Virus record (IMG/VR): IMGVR_UViG_3300005289_000004
Coordinates: 11,641 to 75,640 of that record
Source of the DNA: a virus
Direction: 5' to 3' (one strand)
Length of the DNA: 64,000 bases
The position numbers and the translations under genes are program-made. Position 1 is the first letter of the stretch. Every line of letters begins with the position of its first letter. The notes under the pieces are model-generated. The model searched no databases, was not told where the DNA came from, and saw only the letters and a list, made by a program, of their open reading frames with translations. Below, piece after piece: positions 31,366 to 55,672 of this stretch.

Positions 31366-31549
31366 CTTCTTTAATGTTTAACTTAACAATTCAAATATAC
31401 GACTACTATATGACATTACCAAATTTATTTTTATAAAGGGATAGCTTTACTTTTTCGTATAGGATGTTAAGTTATAACTGTACTTGTGTCACCCTGTTAA
31501 AATAGGTATACTATTTCTGTATATATTTGCAATTGTAAAAGTAAAGTAG

Positions 31550-31557
31550 TACCTTTG
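31550..31557 (+). promoter_or_regulatory. Bacteroidota -7 promoter element TACCTTTG
   Basis: Matches TAnnTTTG with an upstream TTTG -33 element. Confidence 0.7.
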
Positions 31558-31560
31558 CAT

Positions 31561-32055
31561 GTATAAGTAGTTGTTATATCAGGAGTGTAACATACCGCAG
31601 CTTAAAAGATATTAGAAAGGCCGATAAGTCGTCAAATAGGAACTCCTGATTCCTGATGTACTTTGAAGCCTTTTCTGTTTTAAATATTTTATTTAAGCTG
31701 TTGTATGTAGTCGTTGAACAGCTTGGGATATAAGAAGCCCTTAAACAAAAACAACCGTTAAGAAAATAGGCTAAGAAATAAAGAGTTAGCAATGCTTACG
31801 CCAGCAACTAACGACCTGAATGACAGAAATGTTCAAACACTTAGACCGCCATTGAGAATAAGATTTAGCTTTGATTGAGATTTACGAGCTATTTGGGAGG
31901 GGTGATGGGTAGTTTTCTTATAGATTGTAACCTTTAGAACTTAGATCAGCTATAATGCTAGATTATTAATAAGGGTTAACTCAGGAAGGTTGGGATCAAG
32001 TATCTCTACATTCAGGGGTATAAGGCGGGAACTGTCTAATCAGCAACTAACGATC
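31561..32055 (+). ncRNA. Candidate large structured ncRNA with 5' kissing-loop module
   Basis: No credible ORF; loops ATCAGGAGT and ACTCCTGAT are complementary; several long-range complementary segments. Confidence 0.55.
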
Positions 32056-32066
32056 ATATATAGGTT

Positions 32067-39121: not shown

Positions 39122-39223
39122 TATCTTTGTGCTGTTACAGTATCTCAATTTAAGTAACAGTAAGAAATTTAACACCCATTGCACCTAAAAGTGAGTTGAG
39201 ATACACTGGCGGGAGTAGTGGGT
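39122..39223 (+). promoter_or_regulatory. Promoter plus kissing-loop RNA leader
   Basis: TATCTTTG followed by two hairpins whose loops TATCTCAATT / AGTTGAGATA are complementary. Confidence 0.6.
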
Positions 39224-39233
39224 TTATTATTTT

Positions 39234-40163
39234 ATGACACGCTCAGAAGAAATTTTAAATGGGTTCAACGAAACTCATAACTACAAATACACCTATCCTA
39301 ATTACGGTGCTAAGAACCTTCAAGAAAAAGTTACAATCGTCTGTCCTGAACACGGAGAGTTTGTTAAGTTCGGATATTGCCATTTGAGAAGAAAGCAAGG
39401 ATGCCCCAAGTGTTCGCACATTGGTTTGTCAAGGTATACAGAAGAGGAGTTCATGGATAGCCTAATTAAAACTCACGGTTATCCGTTACCTTTTGAAATT
39501 TTGTCTCCGTATGTGGGTAATAAGGATGACATTATGATTAAGGATAAGTATGGTATTTGCAAAACTAAACCCTATAACCTTACACGAACCTCTTATGGTT
39601 CCTTACGAACTGCCGTAGATAAAACTGCGTACATGATTGCCAAGTTTAATGAAAAACACAACTTCAAATACACTTACGACAATTTTGTGTACAAAGGTAA
39701 TAGGGTACTAGGTACAGTCACTTGCCCTGAGCATGGGGATTTTGAACAGTTGGTGGATGTACACTTAATGGGTTGTGGATGCCCTAAATGTGCAGACTCT
39801 AATAAGGTAAGCGGCTACGGGAGAAATGATTACATAAGGGTTTGTAAAGAAAGGGAGGCAAGTTTATACATCATATGCTGTTACAGCGAGGATGAGTTCT
39901 TTGTTAAAGTGGGTATTACATCTACAGGAGTGAATAAAAGATTTAGAGACAGAAGTGCGATGCCCTATGAATTTTCTTCATTATTTGAAACTATAGGTGA
40001 TCCTGCTGAAATTTGGGATTTAGAACTGAGCTTGAAAAGAAAATATAAAGGCAATACATACCTGCCACAAGTTTATTTCAAAGGACAGACAGAATGCTTT
40101 ACTTTTGAGACAGCAGAAAAAATGATTGAAGAAATTAAAAATAAATTTGTAAATGCGACATAG
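39234..40163 (+). CDS. Homing endonuclease with CPxHG zinc-ribbon repeats and C-terminal GIY-YIG-like domain
   Basis: Two CPEHGxF..H..G.GCPKC repeats; LYII..FVKVGIT..RF..E..GQTECF. Confidence 0.8.
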   Translation: MTRSEEILNGFNETHNYKYTYPNYGAKNLQEKVTIVCPEHGEFVKFGYCHLRRKQGCPKCSHIGLSRYTEEEFMDSLIKTHGYPLPFEILSPYVGNKDDIMIKDKYGICKTKPYNLTRTSYGSLRTAVDKTAYMIAKFNEKHNFKYTYDNFVYKGNRVLGTVTCPEHGDFEQLVDVHLMGCGCPKCADSNKVSGYGRNDYIRVCKEREASLYIICCYSEDEFFVKVGITSTGVNKRFRDRSAMPYEFSSLFETIGDPAEIWDLELSLKRKYKGNTYLPQVYFKGQTECFTFETAEKMIEEIKNKFVNAT

Positions 40164-40420
40164 ACAAGTTACATTTGATAAACACAACATCCAAAACAAT
40201 TGAAAATGGATAAAATAATAACCAACATGAAATACACACGATACGAAATACAAGAACGCAAGCATAGCTCGAATGTAGTCTTAGGAATATACGAGATTTT
40301 TAACAATCACAAAGGTGAATACGAAGAGCATTCTCAGATTATAGCTATACCTGTTGAACGTAAAGCAGAAGGAGATAAGTTAGCGATATTAATTTGCGAT
40401 ATGTTAAATGGTCAGTTGAA

Positions 40421-41353
40421 ATGAATTACCTAGATACCCAGATTCAATATTACGAAAACGATATACGCAAAACCAAGCCCATCGGAGTTTGTACACTAGG
40501 GCAGTTATTAGCCAGCATACGTAACCCTAAACAGGAAGTCTTAGAAAGGTTCAAGGAGATTGCTAAAGCCAGTTCAGACGGAGATAAGAAGTTGAAAGAC
40601 GAACTTAAATCTAAACTGTGGTATTTTACACCTTGTATATACAGCAAAGGAAACAACAGAACCTACGAAGACATAGATCACTGGACAGCTGTTATGGTTT
40701 TAGATTTTGATAATCTGGAACAAGAGTTAGCGGTTGAATTAAGAGATTGGCTGTTTGAAAATTATTCCTGTGTTGTAGCTAGTATGTTATCTAGTTCCCG
40801 TAAGGGTGTTAAATGTTTTGTGAGGATTCCAGAGGTTATCAGTGTGGAAGAGTTTAAACTGTATTTTTATGGGATAGCTTCTGAGATGCAGTATATTGTC
40901 GGGTTCGACCATACTACTCAAAATAGCGCATTGGCTTTCTACCTCACCTACGACTATGACATAAAGGTTCGGGAAGACGCAACTGAATGGACACAGACAG
41001 GTTATAAGCTAGACGAGTTTAAGCAGTGGGAAGGTGGAGAGATTATACCAATTGACGATGTAACAGAACAAGACAGGGAAGAAATAATAAAACAGCTAAC
41101 CTGTATGTACGCAAATATAACTGATAATGGGCATATTCCAAATCGAAGCGCAGGACTCCTCATGGGGGGTTATATCGGTTCGGGGTACTTTACTTATGAC
41201 GAAGCAGTTGACATACTAGATGAGCTAATTGACAATACAAGCTATCTACAAGCTAAACCAAGAACGTACAAGACCACTACACGACAGATGTTAAAAATTG
41301 GCAGTAAGTCCCCCCTATACCTAACCCGACACGAACACTTATATGAAGCCTAA
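40421..41353 (+). CDS. VirE N-terminal/BT4734-like (primase-fold) protein
   Basis: LKSKLWYFTPC..R..VMVLDFD..SSSRKGVK pattern plus a helical C-terminal domain. Confidence 0.65.
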   Translation: MNYLDTQIQYYENDIRKTKPIGVCTLGQLLASIRNPKQEVLERFKEIAKASSDGDKKLKDELKSKLWYFTPCIYSKGNNRTYEDIDHWTAVMVLDFDNLEQELAVELRDWLFENYSCVVASMLSSSRKGVKCFVRIPEVISVEEFKLYFYGIASEMQYIVGFDHTTQNSALAFYLTYDYDIKVREDATEWTQTGYKLDEFKQWEGGEIIPIDDVTEQDREEIIKQLTCMYANITDNGHIPNRSAGLLMGGYIGSGYFTYDEAVDILDELIDNTSYLQAKPRTYKTTTRQMLKIGSKSPLYLTRHEHLYEA

Positions 41354-41711
41354 CAGATTAAAAGTATACAACAAATACGGAGGAAAGTGCGCTTACTGTG
41401 GTACAGATATACAGTTTAAAGATATGCAGGTTGACCACGTTATACCTCAATGGAGAGGTGGTAGCCATAGCAGAGCAATTCCTGTAGACGAAATACACTG
41501 TGAAGACAACTACATGCCTAGCTGTAGATCGTGTAACAACTACAAATCAGGGAATCCGTTAGAAGTTTTTAGAAAATCTATAGAGAACCAGATTGAAATA
41601 TTAAGAAGAGACAGGCCAACTTTCAGACTAGCTGAGAGATATGGACTAATTGAATGCAAACCTAAACCTGTAATATTTTACTATGAAGGATATACCACAA
41701 CAATTCCTTAA
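41343..41711 (+). CDS. HNH endonuclease
   Basis: CAYCG..VDHVIP..GG..N..PSCRSCNNYK. Confidence 0.9.
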   Translation: MKPNRLKVYNKYGGKCAYCGTDIQFKDMQVDHVIPQWRGGSHSRAIPVDEIHCEDNYMPSCRSCNNYKSGNPLEVFRKSIENQIEILRRDRPTFRLAERYGLIECKPKPVIFYYEGYTTTIP

Positions 41712-47143: not shown

Positions 47144-47602
47144 TTATTCGTTCTCACCTTGCAGTTTGATTAACAATGCTAATCCATCAGTCTTTAATAC
47201 TTGCGCTCTAGTCTTTCTATCTCCTTTCCAAAATACATGCGGATTGATCGTATAGTTCCCAAAGCTACCAGTAATTAAACCTTTCTTAATAAGGCTCTTT
47301 ATATTCTTACTGATGTTGGTCAACCCTATATTCAACTCTTTACATATCTCTATACGTGATGCTGTGGTTAGCTGTACAACTCCTGTATTGTACTCAGCTA
47401 CTTCGCAGAACTTTACCAATAACTTTAAGTCGGATAGCTTAGTAAGTCCGTACAATGAACTGATAAACTTTGTGTACGTCATAAAGAACTCCTCTGTTTC
47501 TATCTTAACATTAAACTGTTTGGTTGTTTCGATCAACCTTACTTCTCCTGTTTCGTAATCTACTGTTTCTGTGGTCTGTGATTGTGTTGTGAACTTTGCC
47601 AT
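47144..47602 (-). CDS. repL: RepL-like replication initiator (HTH)
   Basis: VDYETGEV N-terminus, HTH (ICKELNIGLTNISKNIKSLIKKGLI), YTINPHVFWKGD. Confidence 0.75.
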   Translation of the reverse strand: MAKFTTQSQTTETVDYETGEVRLIETTKQFNVKIETEEFFMTYTKFISSLYGLTKLSDLKLLVKFCEVAEYNTGVVQLTTASRIEICKELNIGLTNISKNIKSLIKKGLITGSFGNYTINPHVFWKGDRKTRAQVLKTDGLALLIKLQGENE

Positions 47603-47633
47603 AATGCTTTGCTAATTTATTTAGTAACAAAGA

Positions 47634-47756
47634 TACTACTAAATAGTACGTGTATTTACTAAGGGTTAGTAAGCGGTTTACTATTCTCTAGTATTTAAAT
47701 ACTAATAATTCGGTGTAGAATACTAATCTCTAGTACTACGTTACTAATGGGTATCA
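47634..47756. repeat. Iteron-like array TACTA-N5-TAGTA
   Basis: Copies start at 47634, 47657, 47679, 47700, 47721, 47742 (four perfect palindromes, two half-degenerate), period 21-23 bp. Confidence 0.8.
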
Positions 47757-48821
47757 TTCATTTAGTTGTAATACAGGCAGTTATAAAACCTCTCTATCTT
47801 ATCTAATTAGGTATTATTTATTAATGCTAGGTTGTTGGTTCACTTTTCTGAACCTGTTGAAATCCTTACTGTACACTAAGCTACTAACAGTTTCTTTTAT
47901 TCATGCGGTGTAGCATACGTACTCACGATAGTTTAAATGCGGTTTATGAAAAGCTGTGAAGAGGTCAGTTTTAGCTAGTAATTTACACTAAGTAGGGTAT
48001 TTTAGCTGTTTTATAGTGGGATTTGGGGAAATTTGATGTGTAATGTGTGCATGAGAGACGAATAGTGCCTTTGTCCTTATCTCCCTTATCACTATTTGAA
48101 GCTATCCTAATCTATTGTATTACCTATTTAAACCCCCACATCGTCACTTTGTCCATGCATTTGTCTATGCTCCCACTTTAAACCGTCCTCTTTACCTATC
48201 TGTATTCATGCTGGCTGTCTTACTTACGTATGTTAGGCTTATCCCCTTTTATTCTCTGGTTAGCTTAGCACGTGTAATTATAGAAGATTCGTTCTAATTT
48301 CGGGATTATAGTCTGTTTGTTCTATATTATGTTGAGGTGTACTATTCAGCTAGTACAGTTAGTAGTCATTCTGTTTAAACATGTAATCATTTGGTTACCT
48401 ATTCCTTAACTGTTATGTTGTATACATAGGTTATTACTATTATCAGTTGGTTAGCTTATAAGGTGCAATGTTATTCGGTTAGCTATTCACTTAAAATTAT
48501 TATCTCTCATTTTCAGACAGTTACATTTTATTTGAAAATATTTATTGCTATTTGTTTGGTTTGCCTAATAATCCTTTGTATGTTTGTTATGTCGTTAGTG
48601 ATTAACGCAATCAGATAGGCAACTGTAAAGGTCATTCCGCAAAGCTAGGGTAATAATATAGCATAAGGTAAAGCATACCGACTGTACAAATGCATCTTCG
48701 TGTAATGTAGCTTAGTTAACTAATATGGTTAGCTGATCAGTTCAAAGCCTGAGAAAGTAATTACAGTTTTGTAATGAACAAATACAGATGACACAAACAG
48801 AAACTTTTAAACTTAAATATT

Positions 48822-51800
48822 ATGAGAGAATTAACAGTAACACAACAGTCTTTTAACAGTATGTTATTAGGCTTGATACAATCAGGTGTAACATTTGAAG
48901 CTACTGAACAACCAAACGGTACAATATTAATCACATTCACAGGAGGGTATTAAAATGCAAGACAAATGGTTTTTATACGCACTCGTTGCTATGGGTGTTA
49001 TAGCTTTAATAATATTATCCACACTTTAAATTATACAGTTATGAATACACTGGAATTTTTATCTAAGGCAGAATCGATGTACTTAGACTACGTTAACAAC
49101 TTCATTACACTTGAAGGATTTGCAAGTCACTACGCAATTAGTATCGGGTTAGCTATTGAACTAATAAACTTTGGCAGAGTAGTATTTGAATCAAGTGAAT
49201 ACGAACGTAACACAGACCTTTAATTTTAAAACTATGAATACTCAAATTGAATTTACCCGCATTAACAACGACACAAACGGCAATCCTAGGTATGTGTGTC
49301 ACTTCTTAAATCTGTTAAATAGTAAAGAGCAGGTTGTAATAGCTGCTAAAGCTAAACCATTTCAATCTATACCTGATATGTACAGGGAGGCAGTTAACAA
49401 AGCACGTGCAATAGGTGGTAAGAAATTCCACAACAAACAATACGGAGGTGGTATAGTATTTCAGTCTTACAGCATTCAACAAACAGAGAAAGATATTTTA
49501 AACCTTGTAAATAGCTAGAAAATGGAAGTAGTTTATATAGCAACCTACAAAAAAGATAACGGATATATCAACACTGTACAGTTTGCAGACTTCAATGAAA
49601 TGGTTGAATACCTAGAGACGTACAGAGACTGTAAAGTAATAATAACCACTATTTACATTTAACAATTACAAACATGAAAACTACAGCAATACAACAACAG
49701 TTAATTAACCATCTTGAAGCAGGATTTTTAGTTAGCAAAAAAGAACAAGATAATTTGTTCAAAATACTAAACGGCTCTAACACTGAACTAATAGACAAAT
49801 TAAAAGAACTGTTAAATGAAAGTGAGGGTATTAGTTTATCTGATGAACATAGCAATCAGGGCAAAGACTGGCTTTTAAATCTTTGGAAGTCACTAACAGG
49901 TAAAGAGCGTAAAAACAATCCATTTGGGTACAGAGAGCAGGAAATATTGACAGATTTTAGTCACTGCGAATTGGCAGGTTATTATAACGGTGGTAATAGG
50001 TATATGAACTACTACATTCCTTTGTATGACGTTGTAAGTAATGACGGCAGTAGTTTTCAATACTACATGCAAGGTGGTGAAATTAGTATAGTAGGGTAAC
50101 ATACCAAAACAAATAGAAAGTGTCTAAAATCGGCTAATAATAACCTTAAATCAAAGAATATGAAAACTAAAGAACAAAAAATAGCAGAACTATATAGTAA
50201 CATTGAATTGAACTATAAATTAATAGATGCTATTGTTGACTTGCAAGATGCGGGTTTTGGTAGTAGTGCATTATCACTAGCTCAAGACGAGGCAAATATG
50301 AGAGTTTCAATTAATCAAGAATGCTTAAAAGAACACGAATAACAATCCCTTCCCTGTCTACAGATTTAAATAGCTTGTAACTATTCAGGGAACTAAACTT
50401 AAACAAAATAACATCATGTATTTAACAGAAAAACAAATCAATAGAGTTGCTATAGTGGGTAGCTTTATTATAATCTCTCTAGTAGTATACGCCTTAACAA
50501 AAGGTAATGTGTCTAATCTTTCAACTATAGGATATTAGGTTATGACAAACAGCCAATTTACTATTACCTTAGCATTAGGTCTCTTGCTAGGTATTCTAAT
50601 AACAGTATTAACTTATTCATTATTTAATGTATGAAAACATTAACATTAAACCCTAAAAACTATAAGGTAGGTGATACCATTAAGTTTAGTACAATTACTA
50701 GGTCAGGAAAAGAGACTGTTAAACGGAAGATTGTTTCTATTGATAGCTTTGGTTTAGGTGTAAGATACAACGGTTGGAATCCCTATTACTTAAATAACCC
50801 GATGTTAGATAAAATTATTGAACATATAAAATTATAATTGTTATGAAAACAAACAACAAGAAAGAGGTGATAGCTACGGCCATAGCGTTTGTAGTTATCA
50901 TGAACATGTGTATAGGGTTTACAATAGTAATAGCCCTAACTGATGTGTACACAGTAGAATGCTGGTTAGCTTTGGTATTCAGTGTAGGTATTCTTATACT
51001 GGTAGGTCTTAAACTGGTAGCTGATATGGTAGAATATGAAATAAATAAACAACTTGAATTATAATTGGTAAATTCAAAAGGAGAATTAACTATGAAAAAG
51101 AAAACAATTATACTACAGCTACTGACTGTAGATTTTGAGAATCCTAATTATGGCAGCAATTGTGACTGTCCTGTAGGTAAAGCATGTGCTAGGCAATTAG
51201 GGCTTAACAGGGACGATATTATAGAGTGTGTTGATTGGGTTTATCTAGGTTACGATTTAGACCGATACGACCACGAAGTTTACGGTTTAGATAAGTTTAA
51301 TGCAGACGTTAAGCTAGCCGAACAAAAAGAACCAAACACAGTAATTAGAACACTTACCTTAACTAAAGCATAACATGTATTTACAAACAGAAATACCGAC
51401 ACGTGGTAGCTGGGTAGCTTGGTTAGCCACGATGATAGTTGGAGAGGTTAAAGTAGCTGACCCAAAAGACAGGAATAGAATAGCCACAAGTATTAGCAGT
51501 GCTTTTCATAAAAAGAAGCTGGCTAGGTTTACTATTAAAATTAACAAAAACGACCGTTCAGAATTACATATTACGAGAATCGCATGAGACTGCCTGAAAT
51601 GGTTGCATTAGCGCAACAAGGGGTAAAAATGACCCATAGATATTTTAGTGAAAATGAGTGGTTAGTTATGCAGGGCAACTTAGTTGTGTTTGAAGATGGA
51701 GTTAAGATATTCCTGTCTGAATGGATAACTAATAAAGAGTGGTTAAACGATGGTTGGTCTAAATTTGAAGAGTTATGAAAAGTGTAAATTTCAAAGTAGT

Positions 51801-53838
51801 TAACAGTGACGGTTTATTTGACAAAGGAGAAGTGTTAGCAATCATAGTGCAGCCTTCCGAACAACTCGAAGCTTACCAGCTATTTAAAAAAGACAGTAAA
51901 GTGTTATCTAAGCAGTTTATCAGAACCAATACAAGGAATGCTAAACCAAAGGAGATCATATCGTTAGCTTCTCACTTAACTAAATTAGGAATACAGTATA
52001 AACAAATTAACAGTTTGAAGGGATGAAAAACATTGATACTACAAAACCAAATTGGTTTACAAAAGAGGTTAAAGAGTCTTGGTTAGCTGACCTTAAATCT
52101 GGCAAGTTTATACAAGGGTACGGAGCTTTAAGATATGAAAAAACCTACTGTTGTCTTGGGGTACTTTGTGTAACATTAGATAAAGAATACGAGTTAATCA
52201 GTGAATGTGGTATGAGTAATGGGGATAGCATCTATAACTTACTAGGCCGGGAAATAGGCGACATGAGGGTAGATCATCTGTTTAGGGCTAATGACAGGGA
52301 CTATAACAATAAACACCACAAACATGACTACTCAAACGTAATACCATTAATTGAACAGTTACCTACTAAAGATTAAGTTATGAAAGACGAGAAATTTAAC
52401 CAACTAGTGCTACACATTAATATTCTTATGGGTATATATGCGGAGAGGGAAAAGACCAAAGCGGAATTTAACAGTTACGGAGAAGCGCACGAATGTTTAA
52501 TTAAAAGATCAGTGTTAGAGAATTTACTTATAGAGGCAACTAAAATCAGCAAAGATGAAAAAGTTTAAATCATACTGTCTCCAAACTTTGGATAAAAGTA
52601 ATGGTGGCTATCAACACAGAATGCAAAATAAAACGTTATATCTGGCTAAGGGAGGTGTTGAACTTAAATTAGATGGGCATGAGATTAAAGAATTACTACA
52701 AACGCTTGGTGTTACAGGCGATTTTTGGAATGGATTTAAAGATTAAGTTATGAAACGGTATAGAATAATAAACAGGCTCTATAAAACACTGCTCTTCTTA
52801 TTGCTAACTGTTATACCTCTTACTATGTATCATTTAGACGGTGGTATGAGTAGCTGGTATCCGATATACTATCATTTAATTTGTGGGGCTACGATTAGCT
52901 TGGCATACGATCTACCCTTGTTCCTTAAAAGAAAAATAACAGGGTTATGAGTATAGATAATATGTGTAGCGTAGTCGAGGACTATATTTACAAAAGAAAG
53001 AACGTAAGAGTAACAATCAACAGAGGTTCAATTAATAACTATGCACACTTTCAAATGTTATAAATGGCGTATGAAGTTGCAATAAACTACAAAGACAATG
53101 GCTACTAAAGAATCAGTTATCGCAAATTTGACTAAAGCTACGTATTCGGCAAAAGAAGTCCTGCATTTAATTAGTACTGTTACATTAGACCCTATAAAAC
53201 CGCCCTTTATTATTAAAGGAGATTGTTATTTTGACAGAATTGGGGCTAAGAAAAGACCGTTCTGTGTTATTAAGGTTGTCAGTGATTTAGCTTATGCTAT
53301 ACCGCTTACTACAACTGATAATCAAATGGTGCTGTGTGAAGGTAAGATGCCTAGGTTTGCCCCTAATTACGGGTTAGCTAAGTCTTATTTTGCAAGATCA
53401 GTGGTTGCTGTCCCTATTAATGTGGTGCAAGAGAACTACATGTTTAACTATGAGAATAACGCAGCTATTAACAAAGCTATCCGAGAAATGCGAAAATTAA
53501 TGTGGCAAGTGCTTGGATAATAGAAAACTAACATTTATATTTACAAAATGAAGTACTTAGAATTTTATAGGTTAAGACATAAACCAACAGGTCTTTATTA
53601 CAAACCTAAACGAAAGAGTTGGGACGGTAACCTTTCAAGAAAAGGTAAAGTGTATACCGTAAAGCCTAGTTTAAACCACGTTGGTCTTTGGGTTGATCTG
53701 CCTACAAGCTATGCACCTAATCAAGCAGTCGTTAAAACTGTTATTGAATGTATGGGTGCAGATGCTGTTAAAGAGCGGTATGGTAGACGGTATATTGATT
53801 GCACACAAGAAGATTGGGAAATAACAAAAGAAAATTAA
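48822..53838 (+). CDS. Early gene region: about 20 small hypothetical genes
   Basis: Follows ~1 kb non-coding DNA and a TATGTTTG promoter near 48580; short ORFs with A-rich initiation regions. Confidence 0.55.
51584..51778 (+). CDS. Possible Tad2/DUF2829-like small protein
   Basis: E...A.QG.K..H.YF..W and terminal D.W pattern; weak resemblance only. Confidence 0.3.
   Translation: MRLPEMVALAQQGVKMTHRYFSENEWLVMQGNLVVFEDGVKIFLSEWITNKEWLNDGWSKFEEL
53098..53520 (+). CDS. PemK/MazF-fold protein
   Basis: KGD....KKRPFCVI....AIPLTT matches the PemK/MazF signature. Confidence 0.5.
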   Translation: MATKESVIANLTKATYSAKEVLHLISTVTLDPIKPPFIIKGDCYFDRIGAKKRPFCVIKVVSDLAYAIPLTTTDNQMVLCEGKMPRFAPNYGLAKSYFARSVVAVPINVVQENYMFNYENNAAINKAIREMRKLMWQVLG

Positions 53839-53844
53839 AACATT

Positions 53845-55035
53845 ATGAAAAAAGAATTAAAAGGGTTAGAACAACCCAAAACAGTTGTGCATTGTGACAC
53901 AGAAGAAAAAGCTAACCAAGTACTTAAAATTGCTACAGAGGCTGGCTATGATGGTTTCAGTGATGGTGTTAAGTATTCGGAGGATAACAAGTATGAGCGC
54001 TACAAAGAGAACACATGTTATCAAATTAAACAAGGGTGGTACTCAGGTTTAAACTTTTACACAAGTGAAGGTTACAAGATAATCACAGCAGAAGAATTTA
54101 TTAAAGCTAACCCAACAGTAAAGCTACCCTCCAAAGAAGATGTATACGTAGTACTTGACACACCGGAAAAAGTAAGACAGTTTTATAGTGTTCTTGTACA
54201 GGCAAATGAACCTATATATTATACCTCTAAAGAACGTTGGAGTAAAGGTGAGGTTGACAGTGAATATGATTATTCAAAATATAGTGGTGGTGAATGGAAT
54301 GGGCTTGGAATAAAAAGTGGAACAGAAGTATCAGTAGAACAATTAGCAGAAATATTAAACGTAAAGGTCGTGGAAACAAATTATCGGTTTAAGGTAGGTG
54401 ACAGAGTTAGCACAGCTCATGGAATAGGTACAATCGTAGCTATAACTGACCATCAAAGTCAAAAATACATAGTAGCGAACGACCAAACATTCTTGCAAGG
54501 GCACAACTGTTACAGCAATTCGAATATAATTGACGGTAGCAAGGACGGTTTAAACAGTAACGGTTGGTTTTATAAAGAAAATGAAATGGAATTAGTTAAG
54601 ACAGAAACTCAAACTAAATCGTCCGAGAAAACTCAAACTATCATCCCTAACCGTAAAGTATCACGTGAAGCTCTGGCTGTTATTTACCCACAAGTTTGTT
54701 CAGGATGGCAAGCTAATATTACCAGTCTGTTAGCTAAGACCAGTGCATTTAGCAATGAGGTTGAAGTATCTGAGGATATGGTTAAGACAGCTTATAATGA
54801 GGCTAACGACACGCAAAGAAAATGGCTGAACCTACACTTACCTGCACCTAAAAAGATTGAAACAGTTGAGGTTGTTAAGTGGGCTGTTCTTGACTTAGAA
54901 GATTTAATCATAGGCTCTTATGCAACTGAAAAATTAGCAAGAGGAGCTGCTGGCGGTAATACTGTTGTTGAACTTAAAGGTAGCTACACCGTAGAAGTAG
55001 AAGATGAAGAGTACAGTTTTGAGTTGCCCTTCTGA
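53845..55035 (+). CDS. Multi-domain hypothetical protein with acidic ELPF tail
   Basis: Two related N-terminal domains (VHCDTEEK / VVLDTPEK), SH3-like FKVGDRV segment, C-terminal EDEEYSFELPF. Confidence 0.6.
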   Translation: MKKELKGLEQPKTVVHCDTEEKANQVLKIATEAGYDGFSDGVKYSEDNKYERYKENTCYQIKQGWYSGLNFYTSEGYKIITAEEFIKANPTVKLPSKEDVYVVLDTPEKVRQFYSVLVQANEPIYYTSKERWSKGEVDSEYDYSKYSGGEWNGLGIKSGTEVSVEQLAEILNVKVVETNYRFKVGDRVSTAHGIGTIVAITDHQSQKYIVANDQTFLQGHNCYSNSNIIDGSKDGLNSNGWFYKENEMELVKTETQTKSSEKTQTIIPNRKVSREALAVIYPQVCSGWQANITSLLAKTSAFSNEVEVSEDMVKTAYNEANDTQRKWLNLHLPAPKKIETVEVVKWAVLDLEDLIIGSYATEKLARGAAGGNTVVELKGSYTVEVEDEEYSFELPF

Positions 55036-55060
55036 TAAAACAAACAGCAGTCTTGTCTCG

Positions 55061-55095
55061 AACCGTTATCTCTTAATTGGGGTAGCGGTTTTGTT
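55061..55095 (+). terminator. Rho-independent terminator of the early operon
   Basis: AACCGTTATCTC/GGGGTAGCGGTT stem then T-rich tail. Confidence 0.7.
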
Positions 55096-55099
55096 GTTT

Positions 55100-55600
55100 A
55101 AGCATTATTAACTTTAAAGAAACTGGTAATTTTGACTATAATCAACTGTCCTATAGTGCTATACAACTATCATCTAAACAGGGATTCTTAACCACTCAGC
55201 ATAAATAGAACTGGTAATAGCACACTCGCTAGAAAATGCAACTTGGTAGTTAAGATAAAAGGTAAAAGGTTAGTCTTCGACCCCTCCTGTAAATTATTGT
55301 ATTTGATATCGCCAGTCACTTTTATGGCATTGCTTCCTAAATTAATAGCTTGGGGAATCCGAATTTACAAGGACAACGGTTGGGTACGTTTCAGCGATAA
55401 CTATACAGAAGCTATGTATCTGATCCAATATACGTGTGAAGTATAAAGTGTGGATGCTTGAATGCTTAGACTCAAAACAAAAGCAACAGCCCCCGTATGT
55501 AAGAGTGCAACGTCTTTACGGATAAATAGTGGGGGCAGGAATATTGCTTTGAATATCTTTTATTATTTATCTAACGTTGCAATACAAAGGTGCAACAAAG
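55100..55600 (-). ncRNA. Second candidate large structured ncRNA with kissing-loop module
   Basis: TATATTTG promoter at 55632-55639 (minus); loops TGCAACGT/ACGTTGCA; linker TAAAAGATATT identical to the 31.6 kb copy; no credible ORF. Confidence 0.5.
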
Positions 55601-55672
55601 ATTTAATATATTTTGACTAGGCTTAATGGGACAAATATACAAATAATTCTTATATTTACAAAAAGAAAAGTT

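Follow-up and report, generated by a model that had tools for sequence, protein, structure and literature searches.

The DNA analysed here, which we call the window, is a stretch of 64,000 nucleotides. It spans positions 11641-75640 of a viral record that is 75,640 bp long and carries direct terminal repeats. Its promoter-like sites of the form TTTG-N19-21-TAnnTTTG are of a type that we associate with Bacteroides and Flavobacterium, so the host phylum is presumably Bacteroidota. Within the window, the 132-nt gap between a gene for a family A DNA polymerase and a gene for an endonuclease is occupied by a leader of about 100 bases, which consists of four parts: a TAnnTTTG box is followed by a 5' hairpin, then by a linker rich in A, and finally by a long hairpin with a U-tract (Table 1).

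Table 1. The leader and its flanking genes (positions in the window)
Feature	Position	Strand	Details and basis
Family A DNA polymerase gene, complete, 785 aa	36744..39101	+	Pfam DNA_pol_A; full-length alignment
Promoter box TATCTTTG, Bacteroidota-type -7, predicted	39122..39129	+	sequence; covariance-model column
Hairpin 1	39130..39162	+	39130-39138 with 39154-39162, 9 bp including one G-U; 15-nt loop
K1, segment of loop 1	39141..39150	+	10 nt complementary to 39194-39203, one G-U
A-rich linker	39163..39173	+	pairs with the U-rich tail in the minimum-energy fold, extending hairpin 2
Hairpin 2	39174..39223	+	outer stem 39174-39182 with 39215-39223, 9 bp, two G-U, base CCC/GGG
K2, apical loop of hairpin 2, partner of K1	39194..39203	+	complementarity
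U-rich tail, 8 U in 10	39224..39233	+	between hairpin 2 and the start codon
Homing-endonuclease-like gene, free-standing, 309 aa	39234..40163	+	Pfam DUF723; PHROG 681 'endonuclease' E 5e-39
Promoter of the following gene, full consensus (TTTG, 20 nt, TACATTTG)	40146..40177	+	predicted from sequence

The polymerase is full length when compared with its relatives (52-60% identity), and it stops at the same C-terminal residues as they do. The nuclease combines DUF723 zinc-ribbon repeats with a T5orf172/GIY-YIG-like C-terminal part (an ortholog on contig L044 gives a faint T5orf172 match); its closest relatives are 97, 81, 66 and 53% identical, and the leader comparison described below was made without the contigs that encode them. 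The promoter of the next gene has its -33 element within the 3'-terminal part of the nuclease coding sequence, which makes the nuclease cassette self-contained. The intergenic site behind the polymerase is conserved among related genomes but variably occupied: it is empty in L039 (Cellulophaga phage phi4:1) and L040, whereas it holds an HNH/NUMOD4 gene in L042 (3672-4343, 24 nt past the stop), the 45%-identical ortholog of the window nuclease in L044 (1028-1930, with its start in a TAATG overlap), and a GIY-YIG/NUMOD1 gene in L038 (2883-3896). As judged from its protein family and from this variable occupancy, the gene behind the leader is a free-standing homing endonuclease cassette of predicted activity. 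The post-polymerase site is a hot spot, with three unrelated types of free-standing nuclease across the relatives (HNH/NUMOD4, DUF723/T5orf172, and GIY-YIG/NUMOD1). The window also carries a second, small HNH endonuclease gene (41343-41711; 122 aa; Pfam HNH_5 and HNH), which overlaps the end of the preceding gene and has no leader of its own. The genome is otherwise tightly packed, with the exception of four long stretches that lack any ORF of at least 70 aa: 47602-48966, 50099-50843, 52376-53098 and 55035-55613 (1.36, 0.74, 0.72 and 0.58 kb, respectively).

A sequence-only reading of the region had described the promoter box, both hairpins, the inner stem, the loop pair with its single G-U, and the distance to the ATG, and on re-checking against the sequence all of these coordinates proved exact. 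The predicted box aligns to the same covariance-model column as the TATATTTG boxes of four homologous leaders; no good -33 TTTG lies upstream of it, and the box motif by itself is not enriched within the window. Hairpin 1 begins 0-3 nt past the box (the core kept in homologs is 39133-39138 with 39154-39159), and a start so close to a -7 element places it, by prediction, at the RNA's 5' end or in its immediate vicinity. Inside hairpin 2, a symmetric internal loop (7/7) leads to an inner stem of 4 bp (39190-39193 with 39204-39207) that is capped by a loop of 10 nt, and the nuclease ATG follows 10 nt past the outer stem, at 39234. Both hairpins are present in the unconstrained minimum-energy fold (z about -2), and the duplex formed by K1 and K2, the two complementary loop segments, has a calculated energy of -9.3 kcal/mol.

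Under a loose definition, random sequence of this composition often contains pairs of hairpins whose loops are complementary, and the pairing could in principle reflect chance in an A+T-rich intergenic region. A loose scan, which required two neighbouring hairpins with loops complementary over at least 9 nt, returned 11 sites in the real genome versus 20-31 in Markov-random genomes; because such sites are no rarer in random sequence, bare loop complementarity is not significant. Among the sites of the loose scan are intergenic hairpin pairs at window 31374-31483 (+) and 47607-47657 (+), with loops complementary over 10 nt, where either the promoter box or the U-tail is absent. A fuller descriptor, which called for a promoter box, a hairpin of 36-80 nt whose apex is complementary to a segment upstream of it, and a tail rich in U, found exactly three sites in the 75.6-kb genome, at 31550 (+), 39122 (+) and 55639 (-), with 10, 11 and 9 pairs; with at least 9 pairs it found none in 12 Markov-random genomes. 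This result is supportive only, since the descriptor was written after the sites had been seen. Shuffling the upstream 44 nt of the window copy gave p = 0.0002.

Homologous leaders elsewhere provide the decisive comparison. Five further members were found in other viral contigs (L038, L046, L101/L113, L103 and L163, with L101 and L113 being the same), so that the family sample consists of six distinct members. L038 has the only leader among the polymerase relatives compared, and shows the same architecture with a different loop pair of 7 bp. Features common to the window copy and L038, namely CCCAUU at the stem base together with its pairing partner, and a UUAUU..UUUU tail, then served as patterns for searches of viral contigs, which returned L046, L101/L113 and L103, and a later search added L163; with a pattern of box plus stem base, almost all of the matches listed were random, and at least one (L163) was a true member. 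L046, L101/L113 and L103 show all of the features that the search patterns had left unrequired: a TATATTTG box 39-45 nt 5' of the stem, a short 5' hairpin 3-6 nt past the box, complementarity between loop 1 and the apical loop of hairpin 2, and a start codon (ATG) 10-17 nt past the stem. L163 is a variant, in which the complementary 9-mer stands at the transcript 5' end without a hairpin of its own. The stem base CCCAUU/(A/G)(G/A)UGGG is kept in the six members, hairpin 2 is followed in all of them by a U-rich tail 10-17 nt long, and the start codon falls within 10-17 nt in six of six. The anatomy was checked programmatically in five members, and unconstrained folding from the predicted 5' end recovers it in five.

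The loops show conservation of pairing rather than of letters. Across the six members there are five different complementary loop pairs, four of which differ from that of the window, and the pairing extends over 10 nt in the window and over 7, 6-8, 8 and 9 nt in other members. The window and L101 have a common kissing core, UCUCA/UGAGA, around which the flanking positions have changed together; hairpin 1 also shows a compensatory change relative to L101 (G-C to A-U). The energies of the loop duplexes fall between -9.3 and -12.6 kcal/mol (the L163 pair excluded), over lengths of 6-10 nt and G+C contents of 20-83%, and this near-constancy despite varied length and composition looks like selection on stability. 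Covariance models recover members that were not used to build them: model R1, built from L101 and L103 only, matches the window copy over its full length (39.5 bits, E 3.7e-6) and L046 at E 0.0019, and a model built without L038 finds L038 at E 3e-4 in 0.8 Mb. All leader alignments were model-based, MAFFT alignments being structurally wrong. When four members were aligned with the model, 95.8% of cells proved to be paired, and 6 of the 18 pairs had changes on both sides; covariation scored 0.481 versus 0.188 in shuffles (0 of 500 reach 0.481) and at most 0.10 with the partners slid, and although an alignment fitted to the model favours the structure, the slid controls carry the same bias. In the three homologs that had not been used for discovery, the shuffle test gave p values of 0.075, 0.024 and 0.047 for run length (combined 0.0046) and a combined p of 0.0003 for duplex energy. 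The window alone would be insufficient, but with independent homologs that keep the pairing in different letters, covariance models that recover those homologs, and the shuffle and random-genome tests, chance is scarcely credible and is already refuted by the comparative data. The window copy itself has the TAnnTTTG box at the family spacing, the stem base and tail, a member-specific loop pair, and a match to an independently built model. Comparative sequence data thus indicate that the leader is real and conserved in unrelated phages.

The same data bear on whether the conserved element acts as RNA or as DNA. A nuclease homing site, a replication origin or inverted repeats that bind a protein could be expected at such positions, given that the leader lies directly upstream of replication-initiator genes in four contigs (a usual location for an origin), that it coincides with mosaic breakpoints, and that the site behind the polymerase is a hot spot for nuclease insertion. 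We nevertheless consider an element of this kind very unlikely: stems and loop pairing both include G-U pairs, which on the opposite strand or within a cruciform would turn into A-C mismatches, stems and loops covary with no single binding sequence kept, and the strand always matches that of the downstream gene. From these G-U pairs it follows that the structure belongs to the strand of the downstream gene, and hence to its RNA.

The leader family is absent from Rfam: no family matched in a search of the whole window at the gathering score or in a local search of the element at E up to 10, and permissive thresholds applied to the element and to the head at 31550 (head 1) gave noise only. Among INPHARED phages no DNA similarity was detected, and we found no description in the literature of a kissing-loop phage leader of this kind. 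Covariance model R2, applied with limited sensitivity to 151 Flavobacteriaceae genomes, found no true member and one plain terminator, and a strict pattern gave 16 matches in prokaryote genomes, none with a promoter box, as would be consistent with chance. A 14-nt match between Cellulophaga phage phi4:1 and the linker of head 1 lies within coding sequence and was dismissed as chance, and the descriptor matches in this phage were mostly noise or plain terminators. One site in phi4:1 (L078:12419-12536, about base 91,600-91,740) has a promoter box, TACGTTTG, followed by a strong terminator whose hairpin interior has two blocks, of 7 and 9 nt, that are complementary to the 5' region; the site may be distantly related to the leader architecture, or may be a small RNA.

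A kissing-loop riboswitch that binds a ligand, similar to guanidine-II or guanidine-IV, would also show a pair of hairpins that interact through their loops ahead of a terminator, an arrangement seen in guanidine-IV, and a fragment of a group I intron might likewise be expected to have a nuclease gene behind it, as in many phage introns. Neither fits the data: Rfam gives no match even at E up to 10, loop sequences that are wholly different between members leave no conserved ligand pocket, and the polymerase gene is complete, with no second exon behind it. A reading along these lines is already largely refuted, and we hold it to be highly improbable. The group I intron was rejected specifically, as the polymerase is whole and ends as in its relatives and no Rfam intron matched; with the polymerase gene complete and unsplit, the leader is not part of an intron.

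The three sites of the fuller descriptor are the leader (head 3) and the heads of two large regions in the same genome that had been taken for noncoding RNAs, and the scan bears out the earlier claim that they have an architecture in common. Heads 1 and 2 have U-rich tails and are not directly followed by an ORF; the CCCAUU stem base is absent from both, and covariance model R2 does not recover them. The suggestion that these ORF-less copies derive from an endonuclease-linked element finds no support, because heads 1 and 2 show no detectable sequence homology to head 3, and common descent of the three heads is therefore not supported. The two regions (window 31550-32066 and 55100-55640, each about 500 nt) have a linker 11-mer in addition to the head architecture in common; their bodies of about 380 nt gave no convincing alignment, the area around 31550-32066 gave only noise in Rfam at a permissive threshold, and 55100-55640 was covered, with no match, by the whole-window search at the gathering score. 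Head 2 lies in the ORF-free stretch at 55035-55613.

Three copies in one genome, each with its own loop code, could point to a stand-alone small RNA gene, whose product of about 95-105 nt would be compact, nuclease-resistant and active in trans (for example as an immunity-type RNA or a decoy), with any read-through being incidental. Such an RNA would be delimited as a discrete unit by the promoter box and the terminator-like 3' end, and its fold is compact with both ends paired. We regard it as distinctly unlikely, given that the loops are complementary to each other and not to other sites in the genome, that no single-stranded seed region is conserved, and that a start codon follows so closely in every member.

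The genes behind the leader differ from member to member. A DUF723/T5orf172-like nuclease stands behind it in the window and a GIY-YIG nuclease in L038; the leader of L046 is followed by a DnaD-like helicase loader and then DnaB, that of L101/L113 by a replication initiator and then DnaB, that of L103 by a different replication initiator and then DnaB, and that of L163 by a replication module with DnaB. The sequence-only reading had presented the leader as a portable 5' module and had tied it to homing endonucleases. Portability is well borne out, with homologous leaders standing before different genes in contigs that have no detectable protein in common: none of L046, L101, L113 and L103 encodes a protein in common with the window genome (tblastx E 1e-4 or better), and in L038 the polymerase is the only one. 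Further, L101/L113 and L103 are about 90% identical until 5 nt past the leader's ATG and then divergent, which marks the leader as a module boundary. Past this recombination breakpoint, in the comparison of L103:1-765 with L113:13321-12558, the contigs carry different alleles of the replication initiator, and L103 has additional ParB-like and glucosyltransferase genes. The tie to homing endonucleases is not general, with nuclease genes behind two of the six leaders and replication-initiator/DnaB modules behind the other four; since four of six members head replication modules, the leader is portable and not an attribute of homing endonucleases. No leader is present at the L044 ortholog, which occupies the same post-polymerase site, or at the L042 HNH nuclease, nor was a convincing one found upstream of 35 distant nuclease homolog loci; a candidate in L007 was rejected because it overlaps a coding region.

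What the leader does is suggested mainly by hairpin 2 and the sequence that follows it. The G+C-rich stem base CCC/GGG runs directly into the U-tract, as in an intrinsic terminator, and a GUGGGG plus U-tract 3' half also occurs in plain terminators of other phages returned by the same pattern search. Hairpin 2 is not a compact hairpin (50 nt in all, including the internal loop and the 10-nt apical loop), and, being long and interrupted, it is not called by a simple consensus terminator scanner. The A-rich linker pairs with the U-rich tail. Initiation regions in the window are otherwise A-rich, while the tail before the nuclease gene is U-rich and terminator-like: the 14 nt before its ATG contain 9 T and 2 A (versus means of 3.7 T and 6.7 A), making it the T-richest of 80 gene starts.

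The earlier proposal was that the module serves as a stabiliser or in translational control. In its developed form this would be a 5' leader with no role in termination, in which a hairpin locked by the kissing loop shields the mRNA from RNases that depend on the 5' end, while hairpin 2 and the pairing of linker with tail limit access of ribosomes to the AUG. The anatomy accommodates such a leader: hairpin 1 starts 3-6 nt past the -7 box in all members that have it, a placement typical of protective 5' hairpins, and hairpin 2 ends 10-17 nt before the AUG, beside which the linker pairs with the tail. Nucleases of phage T4 are, moreover, regulated by hairpins at the ribosome-binding site (PMC2988022). 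On the other side, the tail, being U-rich, departs from the A-rich initiation regions that the other 79 genes have and resembles a terminator tract, and heads 1 and 2, with the same architecture, have no ORF directly behind them. We consider a leader confined to these two functions unlikely, although stabiliser and terminator functions are not mutually exclusive. As originally put, the proposal is not upheld; the U-tract and the terminator-like hairpin 2, which it had overlooked, move the likely function towards transcription attenuation.

We hypothesize that the leader is a cis-acting RNA in which a terminator-like second hairpin, coupled to the 5' end by a kissing loop, gates read-through into the gene behind, and we give this reading an even chance of being correct. 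Transcription would start from the leader's own predicted Bacteroidota-type promoter, and hairpin 1 would form at the very 5' end of the transcript. Hairpin 2, with its G+C-rich base, the A-rich tract before it, and the U-tract after it, would constitute an intrinsic-terminator-like gate 10 nt before the start codon; we infer both promoter firing and termination at hairpin 2 from predicted elements. Loop 1 would form 6-10 bp with the loop at the apex of the terminator hairpin (about -9 to -13 kcal/mol), and this docking would couple folding of the terminator to the 5' end of the same RNA; the leader would thus set the number of polymerases that read through into the gene behind. In the window it would throttle a potentially harmful nuclease, and in other phages it would head a replication module.

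The kissing loop could act in either of two directions. It may pre-organise the long hairpin and raise termination, with the nuclease being throttled. Alternatively, as in the guanidine-IV riboswitch, it may keep the stem from closing and so allow read-through, an effect that would suit the four members with essential replication genes. Because such genes lie behind these four, termination cannot at the same time be strong and unconditional. No alternative pairing of the anti-terminator kind was found to be conserved, and the idea that read-through transcripts refold to hide K1 was dropped, as it holds for L038 only and not for the window.

Extending the gating model, the kissing loop might be a self-addressed code, in which the 6-10-nt pair of each leader licenses or enforces only its own terminator, such that several gates could operate without cross-talk and the cassette could move among unrelated Bacteroidota phages, coming to stand before replication modules and selfish nuclease genes; we put this forward tentatively, as a possibility that falls short of even odds. 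If loop pairing does set termination, the leader would be a compact device for dosing genes that works independently of any protein or ligand and owes its specificity to a few swappable bases, of interest both to RNA biology and to the engineering of Bacteroidota, where regulatory parts are few. It would also illustrate how Bacteroidota phages keep free-standing nuclease genes in check and begin their replication modules, and its signature could help to locate promoters and operon starts in uncultured Bacteroidota phages.

Several known systems resemble the leader in part. In the lambdoid PR' - 6S RNA - tR' arrangement, promoter and terminator lie within about 100-200 nt of each other and the downstream genes are expressed by read-through only, released by Q. 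The leader would have in common with it a promoter-proximal terminator with the genes behind expressed by read-through (predicted in the case of the leader); lambda differs in requiring Q at the promoter for read-through and in having no kissing loop. No Q-like read-through factor was found, the leader-bearing contigs having no detectable protein in common with the window genome apart from the L038 polymerase. The put RNA of HK022 consists of two promoter-proximal hairpins that act in cis on the transcribing polymerase, and leaders of the ompA type prolong the life of an mRNA through a base-paired 5' end. The phage leader resembles put in its two promoter-proximal hairpins and ompA in its base-paired 5' end; by contrast, put has a conserved sequence, no loop-loop pairing, and a position upstream of separate terminators, and ompA-type stabilisers lack a terminator-like second hairpin.

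A further parallel is offered by the free-standing homing endonuclease genes of T4 (mobE, segF, segB and I-TevI), which likewise form cassettes between conserved genes. Their expression is limited by 5' terminators or hairpins, with the promoter of the next gene right behind the cassette, as for mobE and nrdB, or, as an alternative arrangement, with a UAAUGA stop-start overlap (PMC2988022); the window, L038 and L044 show the same solutions. The T4 elements differ from the phage leader in that they are simple hairpins, without loop-loop pairing, and do not form a conserved portable family, whereas the leader heads replication modules too.

Also comparable is the guanidine-IV riboswitch (mepA motif), in which the loop of a 5' hairpin kisses the loop of the terminator hairpin in the same leader, and this kissing interaction competes with completion of the terminator stem and so decides between termination and read-through (PMC11611296). 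The loop nucleotides of guanidine-IV are conserved and bind guanidine; across the members of the phage family no loop position is conserved, and Rfam returned neither guanidine-IV nor guanidine-II (gathering score, or E up to 10). In their place the phage leader has 6-10 member-specific Watson-Crick pairs, and loop pairs that are so long and so variable in their letters indicate that no ligand is involved. If the self-addressed code proves true, the leader would amount to a programmable version of the guanidine-IV mechanism that works without a ligand, and would represent a new class of phage transcription control.
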